Origin: a virus
Lineage: Duplodnaviria; Heunggongvirae; Uroviricota; Caudoviricetes
Virus record (IMG/VR): IMGVR_UViG_2541047122_000022
Reading direction: 5' to 3' (one strand)
Length of the DNA stretch: 6,885 nt
Shown: positions 705 to 764 of the stretch, in pieces
Layout: every line of letters starts with the position of its first letter
Position numbering within the stretch: the stretch's first letter is position 1
Position numbers and translations under genes: made by a program
Notes under the pieces: model-generated
Seen by the model: the letters and a program-made list of their open reading frames with translations, nothing else
Databases searched by the model: none
Told to the model about the DNA's origin: nothing

Positions 705-764
705 GAGTAGAATTTAGAATAGCCTAAGAGTTATGGTCAAGCTTTTTGTGTAGAAAAACCTAAG
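705..764 (-). promoter_or_regulatory. Putative leftward early promoter (PL analogue) flanked by two operator-like sites
   Basis: On the minus strand: -35 TTGACC (rc of 735-740), 18-nt spacer, -10 TAAATT (rc of 711-716). Two 14-bp sites matching the TTAGG-N5-CTAA motif: TTAGGCTATTCTAA (rc of 714-727) and TTAGGTTTTTCTAC (rc of 750-763). Confidence 0.35.

Follow-up and report, generated by a model that had tools for sequence, protein, structure and literature searches.

The closest described counterpart of the region analysed here is dicBp, a promoter of the Qin prophage of Escherichia coli K-12. It lies downstream of dicA and is the analogue of an early-left promoter (PL); according to PMC10448788, citing Bejar 1988, it is repressed by DicA, and deletion of dicA derepresses it 22-fold. 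The antirepressor Rem derepresses dicBp 165-fold (PMC10448788; Ragunathan et al. 2023). The same paper reports that DicC drives, and is needed for, spontaneous switching in K-12, and gives an RNase III site at positions 813/814 (the origin of this numbering is unstated). K-12 DicA binds the operator Oc (TTGTTAGTCATAACTAACAA) in vivo and one base change abolishes this binding; the operators Om and Oa were not bound in the same in vivo assay (PMC3441716; Yun et al. 2012).

A second described system is the early-left region of phage P22. In the P22 record, PL reads TTGACC-17-TAAATT, and the early-left transcript is annotated as beginning with the A of CCATCAG. OL1 (TTAAGAAGTCTTAA) is located at -23 to -10, and OL2 (TTAAGTTTTCTTCA) at -58 to -45, 9 bp upstream of the -35 hexamer.

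The third is phage lambda, in which rexAB lies between the repressor gene and PL, and OL and OR are about 2.4 kb apart. The region described here shares the lambda logic: divergent repressor and cro genes, and one repressor serving two outward early promoters through inverted operator clusters. It differs from lambda in that its operators have no sequence similarity to those of lambda, that it has two left operators instead of three, that rexAB is absent between the repressor gene and PL, that the two operator clusters are only about 0.5 kb apart, and that induction is expected by an antirepressor and not by RecA-mediated cleavage. A bistable switch with a Cro-like partner is a further feature in common (PMC10448788).

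We have analysed a viral DNA stretch of 6,885 bp (called here the window). We estimate a probability of roughly 0.88, from sequence comparison, that positions 704 to 763 on the minus strand are the PL/OL analogue of a P22-like, DicA-type immunity module in the element PPompW, and the orthologue of Qin dicBp. At this probability, the element is of a known kind with a known mechanism: an orthologue of Qin dicBp/OL with the structure of a two-operator P22 PL/OL.

The source prophage and its operator copies

A sequence search with positions 1 to 1600 of the window identified a chromosomal prophage in many E. coli O157:H7 genomes, with 99.6-99.7% identity. Copies spanning at least 80% of this stretch are present in 520 E. 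coli genomes. The copy in strain SS52 (99.7% identical at the locus) adjoins ompW. The name 'PPompW' comes from phage records, and a published survey (PMC8112680) classes this prophage as lambda-like and defective. Exact matches to the window were obtained for four primers of Pan et al. 2019 (PMC6915034), namely DicC-His-F, DicC-His-R, the DicA reverse primer and dicA-qF, and the 50-nt homology arm of their dicC-deletion primer is identical to window 1273-1322. The features of interest are collected in Table 1. Other genes in the window are ydaT, an O-like gene, a P-like gene, paa and hokD.

Table 1. Coordinates of the immunity region and neighbouring features in the window
Feature	Position	Strand	Basis or description
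ydfC, 5' part (gene cut by the window end)	1-204	-	SS52 locus annotation; alignment with SS52 and K-12 ydfC
99-aa ORF (phrog_21318, function unassigned), first downstream of the leftward promoter	276-575	-	PHROG match, E = 4e-67
5' leader of the leftward operon	640-703	-	~100% identical to K-12 ydfA 5' UTR
Leader parts: hairpin ACACCG-CA-CGGTGT, CTCAG, GTTCCGC, second hairpin CCC-GGCGTTAA-GGG(G)	640-703	-	
Predicted transcription start, A of CTCATCAAG, 7th nt after the -10	704	-	Distance from the -10 and P22 annotation
-10 hexamer TAAATT, 18-bp spacer from the -35	711-716	-	Promoter scan
OL1, promoter-proximal operator TTAGGCTATTCTAA	714-727	-	Exact motif match; half-sites TTAGR/YCTAA
-35 hexamer TTGACC, leftward promoter (dicBp/PL analogue)	735-740	-	Promoter scan
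OL2, distal operator TTAGGTTTTTCTAC	750-763	-	Exact motif match
Terminator-like A-tract/stem/U-tract hairpin between the dicA stop codon and OL2	775-810	-	RNA fold
dicA homologue	839-1246	-	135 aa; Pfam HTH_3, E = 4e-14, no other domain
dicC-side operator cluster (OR analogue)	1248-1312	+	Three exact motif matches
dicC-side site TTAGGTAATTCTAA	1248-1261	+	Exact motif match
dicC-side site TTAGGTTTCTCTAC (middle)	1273-1286	+	Exact motif match
dicC-side site TTAGGAAAATCTAA	1299-1312	+	Exact motif match
dicC (Cro-type), divergent from dicA	1323-1550	+	Pfam P22_Cro, E = 3e-13
Rem homologue, runs off the window	from 6645		73% identical to K-12 Rem

The 14-bp motif TTAGG-N5-CTA[A/C] has exactly five matches in the 6,885 bp. 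All are confined to the two intergenic regions that flank the dicA homologue. The clusters are mutually inverted, with minus-strand copies to the left of the repressor gene and plus-strand copies to its right. An earlier note on this DNA had reported the motif twice on the minus strand. This is correct: the reverse complements of 714-727 and 750-763 are the sequences listed as OL1 and OL2. OL2 and the middle dicC-side site are identical at 13 of 14 positions. The same note had proposed a 15-mer common to this left site and the dicC-side operator, and the reverse complement of 750-764 (CTTAGGTTTTTCTAC) does agree with 1272-1286 (CTTAGGTTTCTCTAC), at 14 of the 15 positions.

A position weight matrix (PWM) derived from the five sites gives them scores of 19-25 bits, with OL1 as the highest-scoring position of the window (24.9 bits). 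The scan found no third left operator (OL3) in 640-838. Among the best 16 matches the sole additional one in the left spacer is the opposite strand of OL1, with 4.9 bits. A three-operator OL (OL1-OL3) in the style of lambda or P22 is therefore rejected, as the scan gives two left sites. What had been called a 'second operator pair' is best seen as the OL1 and OL2 of a two-operator OL.

Short AT-rich words repeat easily between genes and families of two copies are often due to chance. The recurrence of the motif might, on this account, be a by-product of AT-rich composition or of local duplication, with no role in protein binding. The numbers argue strongly in the other direction. The five matches compare with an expected 0.056, and in 2000 shuffles of the window that preserve its dinucleotides the count never reaches five. 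When the shuffling is limited to the two AT-rich intergenic regions, the mean is 0.013 matches; five are never reached in 5000 shuffles, and two or more are obtained in three of the 5000. In addition, the operator half-sites are retained across loci where the central bases vary, and the operator sequence changes along with the recognition helix of the repressor (see below). By this comparative, covariation and shuffle evidence, an origin by chance or duplication is already effectively refuted.

The predicted leftward promoter and its counterparts in other loci

The sequence TTGACC-18-TAAATT is the sole sigma-70-like match on the minus strand of the spacer downstream of dicA. It agrees with the consensus at only 9 of 12 positions, which, together with the 18-bp spacer, counts against it. 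The sequence put forward in the earlier note as a leftward promoter is present, running from 740-735 through the 18-bp spacer to 716-711. It is located directly downstream of dicA, has the same direction and points away from dicC. A704 is the equivalent of the +1 annotated for P22, within a CATCA context. Relative to this predicted +1, OL1 covers -23 to -10 and OL2 covers -59 to -46. The two motif copies had been described as flanking the promoter. This holds for OL2, which is 9 bp upstream of the -35 hexamer and is the only left site outside the promoter. It does not hold for OL1, which occupies the promoter spacer and extends over the first 3 bp of the -10. The centres of OL1 and OL2 are 36 bp apart, or about 3.4 helical turns; two dimers would therefore not be on the same face of the DNA, and cooperativity between them is not guaranteed.

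The hairpin at 775-810 has a predicted energy of -11.2 kcal/mol (z = -3.5 against shuffled sequences) and probably insulates the leftward promoter from dicA read-through. Since this terminator-like structure separates dicA from the promoter, the leftward genes would need a promoter of their own. Clearer, GC-rich terminators occupy the same place in the Pantoea, Enterobacter and phage Chris1 loci.

In an alignment with K-12 Qin, the left region falls on the spacer between dicA and ydfA, where the same TTGACC and TTAG-N6-CTAA sites are found at the same places, and the three dicC-side sites correspond to K-12 Oa, Om and Oc. As in K-12, the promoter directly follows dicA in the same orientation and has the identical -35 hexamer. 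A promoter-proximal TTAG-N6-CTAA site is also common to both (TTAGTCATGGCTAA in K-12 for the OL1 sequence of the window), as are a nearly identical leader, a predicted downstream operon with ydfC, dicF and dicB, and a Rem homologue (73% identity). The two sequences become almost identical immediately after the promoter, and this identifies the leader of the ydfA/dicB operon. The differences concern the central bases of the operators, the promoter spacer (17 bp in K-12, 18 bp in the window) and the -10 hexamer, which is TAATCT in K-12 and TAAATT in the window. The distal site of the window also fits the motif better than its weaker K-12 equivalent (TTAGCTATAGCATA). Further downstream, ydfA and ydfB of K-12 are replaced in the window by the phrog_21318 ORF with an antisense ECs_2282-family ORF. 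The literature on K-12 dicBp mentions three operators, compared with the two found here.

With P22 PL the window shares TTGACC, TAAATT and the CATCA start context. The positions of OL1 and OL2 match those of P22, save for one extra base in the spacer of the window. The operators have a common format (14 bp, 5+4+5), with TTAAG-N4-CTTAA in P22 and TTAGR-N4-YCTAA in the window, and in both cases the Cro partner is of the P22_Cro type. P22 differs in having a third operator, OL3, where the window has two left operators. Its leader also includes nutL (boxA/boxB) and is followed by gene 24 (N-like). The window leader has neither, and carries instead a conserved element that is different from P22 nutL.

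To extend the comparison, a protein-guided scan using one genome per species yielded eleven DicA loci, of which nine, from seven genera, are intact. Two loci in which dicA is decayed (L012 and L013, from E. coli and Shigella) were left out. The two-site layout after the dicA stop codon is found in Pantoea, Enterobacter, Erwinia, E. ruysiae, E. albertii, Buttiauxella, Citrobacter (two loci) and Yersinia. It consists of a first site resembling TTAG-N6-CTAA, a -35-like hexamer about 9 bp further on, then, after 5-6 bp, a second site with a final TAA that opens the -10 and, 6-8 nt later, CATCAA. From the start of the first site to the start of the second there are 35-36 bp in every DicA locus examined. 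The promoter-proximal site is kept as TTAG-N6-CTAA in the nine intact loci and in K-12, and the CATCAA context in nearly all related loci. The -10 hexamer TAAATT is also present in P22 PL, mEp460 and the E. ruysiae and E. albertii loci, and TAATCT is found in K-12 and Citrobacter.

The viable phages mEp460 and HannyBb have the same leader and module layout. Helix 3 of their DicA-family repressor is VSGSSISLWESD instead of VAHVTISQWERD, and their sites on both sides of the repressor gene are of the TTGAG-N4-CTCAA type (TTGAGTTTTCTCAA on the cro side; TTGAGTTTTCTCAT and ATGAGAAAACTAAA on the left, around TTGACG/TAAATT), with positions, promoter and leader unchanged. Similarly, phage Chris1 has AACAC-N5-GTGTT on both sides. 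This operator-repressor covariation, seen at the level of sequence, is the strongest evidence that the two sides would be controlled by a shared repressor. In a cruder test, 43 distinct immunity regions from viral contigs were used to compare each PL region with its own upstream region or with that of another. A match of 13-14 out of 14 between PL and upstream region was obtained for 20 of the 43 own pairs and for 20 of 258 cross-pairs (Mann-Whitney p = 6e-10). The suggestion of the earlier note that this is an OL/PL analogue sharing its repressor with the dicC-side operators is therefore supported by positional homology with K-12, by the P22 geometry and by covariation of operator and repressor.

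The left sites could have another use. They might be genuine DicA/DicC sites that mainly pair with the dicC-side sites, about 520-550 bp away, in the manner of lambda OL and OR, and so tune dicA autoregulation; the TTGACC/TAAATT match would then be incidental or a very weak promoter. The two clusters are indeed inverted copies only about 0.5 kb apart, the conserved C-terminal region of DicA (residues ~85-135) could mediate oligomerisation, and K-12 DicA acts from Oc as an activator of its own promoter (PMC3441716). We nevertheless consider this very unlikely. The -35, the -10 and the CATCA context have been conserved along with the sites in different genera and immunity types and agree with P22 PL, and the orthologous K-12 fragment, when placed far from Qin, is an active promoter that DicA represses 22-fold (PMC10448788). 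Looping would, moreover, add to the occlusion of the promoter and not replace it.

The leader RNA and the downstream operon

The leader is about 100% identical to that of K-12, although the DicA proteins are only 63% identical. It is far more conserved than the immunity region. A unit composed of GTTCCGC, N2-3 and a 4-bp stem with a GGCGNNAA loop heads the PL operons of at least 120 lambdoid contigs in IMG/VR. This GUUCCGC-hairpin unit occurs with dozens of unrelated immunity types, downstream of many unrelated sets of operators and promoters, and is located either ~45 nt or ~130-150 nt from the CATCA start.

Both stems show compensatory changes. Variants of the second stem are CCCC/GGGG, GCCU/GGGC, ACCC/GGGU and CCCU/AGGG, and the 5'-proximal hairpin covaries as ACACCG/CGGTGT, AATCAC/GTGATT and ACAACGA/TCGTTGT. 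These stems were read directly from an alignment (A4) in which indels shift the stem between columns. The fold energy of the leader is unremarkable (z = -0.5), so that it is covariation by itself that argues for the structure. Rfam gave no match to the leader, using the SS52 stretch that contains it together with four viral long-leader loci; only DicF and STnc100 were detected, downstream. A full-text literature search with the leader sequence also gave no match.

Two known types of antitermination signal were considered and rejected. An HK022-type put RNA does not fit, since the HK022 PL-nun spacer contains no GTTCCGC, no GGCG..AAGGG and no other segment in common with the leader. An N-type nut site does not fit either, since neither a CGCTCTT(T)A boxA nor a boxB with a 5-nt loop is present in the leader; read against P22 nutL, the leader hairpin has a loop of 8 nt in place of a GNRA-like pentaloop. 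No N-type antiterminator gene is found downstream of PL, where the ORFs are phrog_21318 and ydfC. These phages are without N/nut and put, yet their PL transcripts have to get past the DicF terminator before they arrive at dicB, exo, xis and int, and the leader could for this reason be a cis-acting signal. That it is an undescribed RNA signal of this kind is a tentative suggestion, to which we give a rather low probability. Its role could be processive antitermination, or control of the stability or translation of the first PL gene.

The first genes of the operon are partly decayed in the window. Alignment with ydfC of SS52 and K-12 reveals that ydfC is frameshifted and truncated by an extra G near position 120. 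Two viral contigs (L038 and L073) have an intact 118-aa form of phrog_21318, with a GTG start immediately after the Shine-Dalgarno sequence of the leader; compared with these copies the first ORF of the window is one base short at its 5' end. The resulting 99-aa ORF is fully antisense to an NCBI-annotated zinc-ribbon ORF of the ECs_2282 family (297-497, plus strand). The latter is interrupted in the window by TAA at 336-338, a codon that is AAA in SS52. In SS52, ydfC is followed on the same strand by DicF and dicB, and then by a DUF1482 gene, exo, xis and int, all of which would lie outside the window. DicF of SS52 corresponds to Rfam RF00039 with 43.5 bits, which is under the gathering score of 48.

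Published expression data exist for this allele in O157:H7. Overexpression of DicA lowered dicB mRNA, as did deletion of dicC, and overexpression of DicC lowered dicA and raised dicB; a dicA deletion was not obtainable (PMC6915034). O157:H7 has several dicB copies and these qPCR results are therefore supportive but not specific to this operon.

Because of the prophage decay (the ydfC frameshift and the base lost from the first ORF), little may remain to be expressed from this copy in the window. It can be asked whether the promoter is itself an inactive relic, no longer used in a decayed prophage or kept silent by a factor such as H-NS acting on AT-rich DNA, in which case repressor control would not matter in this copy. 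In favour are the defective state of the prophage (PMC8112680), the AT-richness of the spacer (38.5% GC) and, besides the damage in ydfC and the first ORF, the nonsense codon in the ECs_2282-family ORF. Against this, promoter, both operators and leader are all intact; window 1-1600, the stretch that contains them, has a copy in 520 E. coli genomes at the coverage given above; and dicA, dicC, dicF and dicB are still intact in the prophage lineage. The response of O157:H7 dicB mRNA to the DicA and DicC of this allele, and the failure to obtain a dicA deletion, point the same way (PMC6915034). A relic is consequently a reading of very low probability, and we retain that of a PL/OL analogue.

Proposed repressor control and its implications

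The DicA homologue is related to both reference repressors. With K-12 DicA it shares, in addition to the overall protein identity given above, the conserved recognition helix HV[ST][VI]SQWE. Residues 1-68 are 62% identical to the DNA-binding domain of P22 C2 and the similarity stops at residue 68; C2 has 216 aa, compared with the 135 aa of DicA, and is aligned to it only over this region. The remainder of C2 is its RecA-cleavable C-terminal domain. No S24 (LexA-like) autocleavage domain is present in the 135-aa DicA, for which Pfam gives HTH families only (best HTH_3, residues 12-64).

In the mechanism that we propose, transcription from the sigma-70 promoter TTGACC-18-TAAATT would begin near A704. 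It would proceed leftward across the leader into the 99-aa ORF and ydfC and, beyond the window, into dicF, dicB, exo, xis and int. DicA dimers are predicted to bind the two 14-bp pseudo-palindromes TTAGR-N4-YCTAA. At OL1 (-23 to -10) DicA would sterically exclude RNA polymerase. At OL2 (-59 to -46) it would probably provide cooperative stabilisation, block upstream contacts, or both. OL2 has a CTAC half-site like that at the position of Om, which is unbound in K-12, so that OL2 may be a weak site, one that depends on cooperativity, or a site for DicC. DicA would also bind the three related sites between dicA and dicC. With the same protein at the left and the dicC-side sites, both early operons would be shut off together. 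DicC, as a Cro-like protein, presumably uses the same sites as DicA.

Since DicA has no autocleavage domain, derepression is expected to come from an antirepressor and not from RecA. The Rem homologue that starts at 6645 suggests, from its similarity to K-12 Rem, the same antirepressor route as in K-12. A flip of the DicA/DicC bistable switch is the other likely route of derepression.

This result leaves the understanding of lambdoid regulation unchanged. The gain is a set of exact coordinates for the promoter, its two left operators and the likely start, which will be of use for annotation. The TTAGR half-site is common to most DicA variants and, as a consequence, prophages that share a host may repress one another's PL through their DicA proteins. 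In EHEC, the prophage-borne copies of dicF and dicB have effects on cell division, virulence regulation and VBNC formation. On the reading preferred here, the O157:H7 ompW prophage has an immunity module with the same wiring as those of Qin and P22.

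Leader RNA of the leftward operon

Transcripts from the predicted leftward promoter would begin with a conserved leader RNA. It consists of a 5' hairpin, the motifs CTCAG and GTTCCGC and then a second hairpin, whose stem has 4 bp and whose loop is GGCGNNAA; this second hairpin lies immediately 5' of the Shine-Dalgarno sequence of the first gene. Conservation was seen in the compared loci L002-L010 and L014-L020 as well as in IMG/VR loci from L021 onward, at least 120 in number. Many lambdoid phages whose immunity types are unrelated carry the unit formed by GTTCCGC and the hairpin at the start of their PL operons, and the stems of this unit vary between loci by compensatory changes. 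A search of Rfam with the leader gave no match. Identification of the leader as a put RNA or as a nut site was considered and rejected.

In the Buttiauxella and Citrobacter DicA loci (L008-L010), a convergent gene has a strong intrinsic terminator whose reverse complement, AAAAAAAGCGCCCTACTGGACGCTT, adjoins the leader directly on its 3' side. Leftward transcripts in these loci would encounter a hairpin at once after the leader.

Features of the window and of the near-identical SS52 locus (L001)
Feature	Location	Strand	Remarks
ydfC	1-204	minus	
phrog_21318 ORF	within 276-631	minus	same direction as leftward operon
ECs_2282-family zinc-ribbon ORF	297-497	plus	NCBI annotation
Conserved leader RNA	640-703	minus	leftward operon
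A-tract/stem/U-tract hairpin	775-810	minus	between dicA stop codon and OL2
dicC-side operator cluster	1248-1312	plus	
Fimbrial-protein pseudogene	4484-5017	plus	SS52 annotation
paa	5176-5934	plus	AcfC-family adhesin gene; SS52 annotation
hokD	6213-6425	plus	type I toxin gene; SS52 annotation
Rem homologue	6645-6885	plus	continues past 3' end
dicB	SS52 4597-4785		
DicF sRNA copy	SS52 4960-5009		RF00039, 43.5 bits, slightly under gathering score

Genes downstream of the leader

Two candidate coding ORFs, the phrog_21318 ORF and the zinc-ribbon ORF, overlap completely on opposite strands. The former has 99 amino acids in the window versus 118, with a GTG start, in the viral contigs L038 and L073, compared with which it is one base short near 618-626. 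The zinc-ribbon ORF reads TAA at 336-338 where SS52 has AAA. Further along the operon, an extra G at about 119-120, compared with ydfC of both SS52 and K-12, causes a frameshift that cuts YdfC to 36 amino acids in the window. In SS52, the DicF copy and dicB lie about 1 kb past the point corresponding to the window's left end, downstream of the leftward promoter and on the same strand.

Operators, probable terminator and proposed induction route

The dicC side holds three copies of the operator rather than two, at a spacing of 25-26 bp. These align with Oa, Om and Oc of the K-12 Qin prophage; the middle site, at the Om position, matches the motif well in the window's group whereas it is degenerate in K-12.

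The hairpin downstream of dicA (-11.2 kcal/mol, z = -3.5) is probably the dicA terminator. It was absent from the output of the consensus terminator scan because of its AT-rich stem and 12-nt loop.

The early-right region also harbours cargo genes (the fimbrial-protein pseudogene, paa and hokD), whose identities were transferred from the annotation of the SS52 locus.

In K-12, the Qin antirepressor Rem lifts DicA repression of dicBp (PMC10448788). The full SS52 copy of the Rem homologue is 73% identical to Qin Rem. This suggests that the prophage of the window is induced by the same route as Qin in K-12, via Rem.
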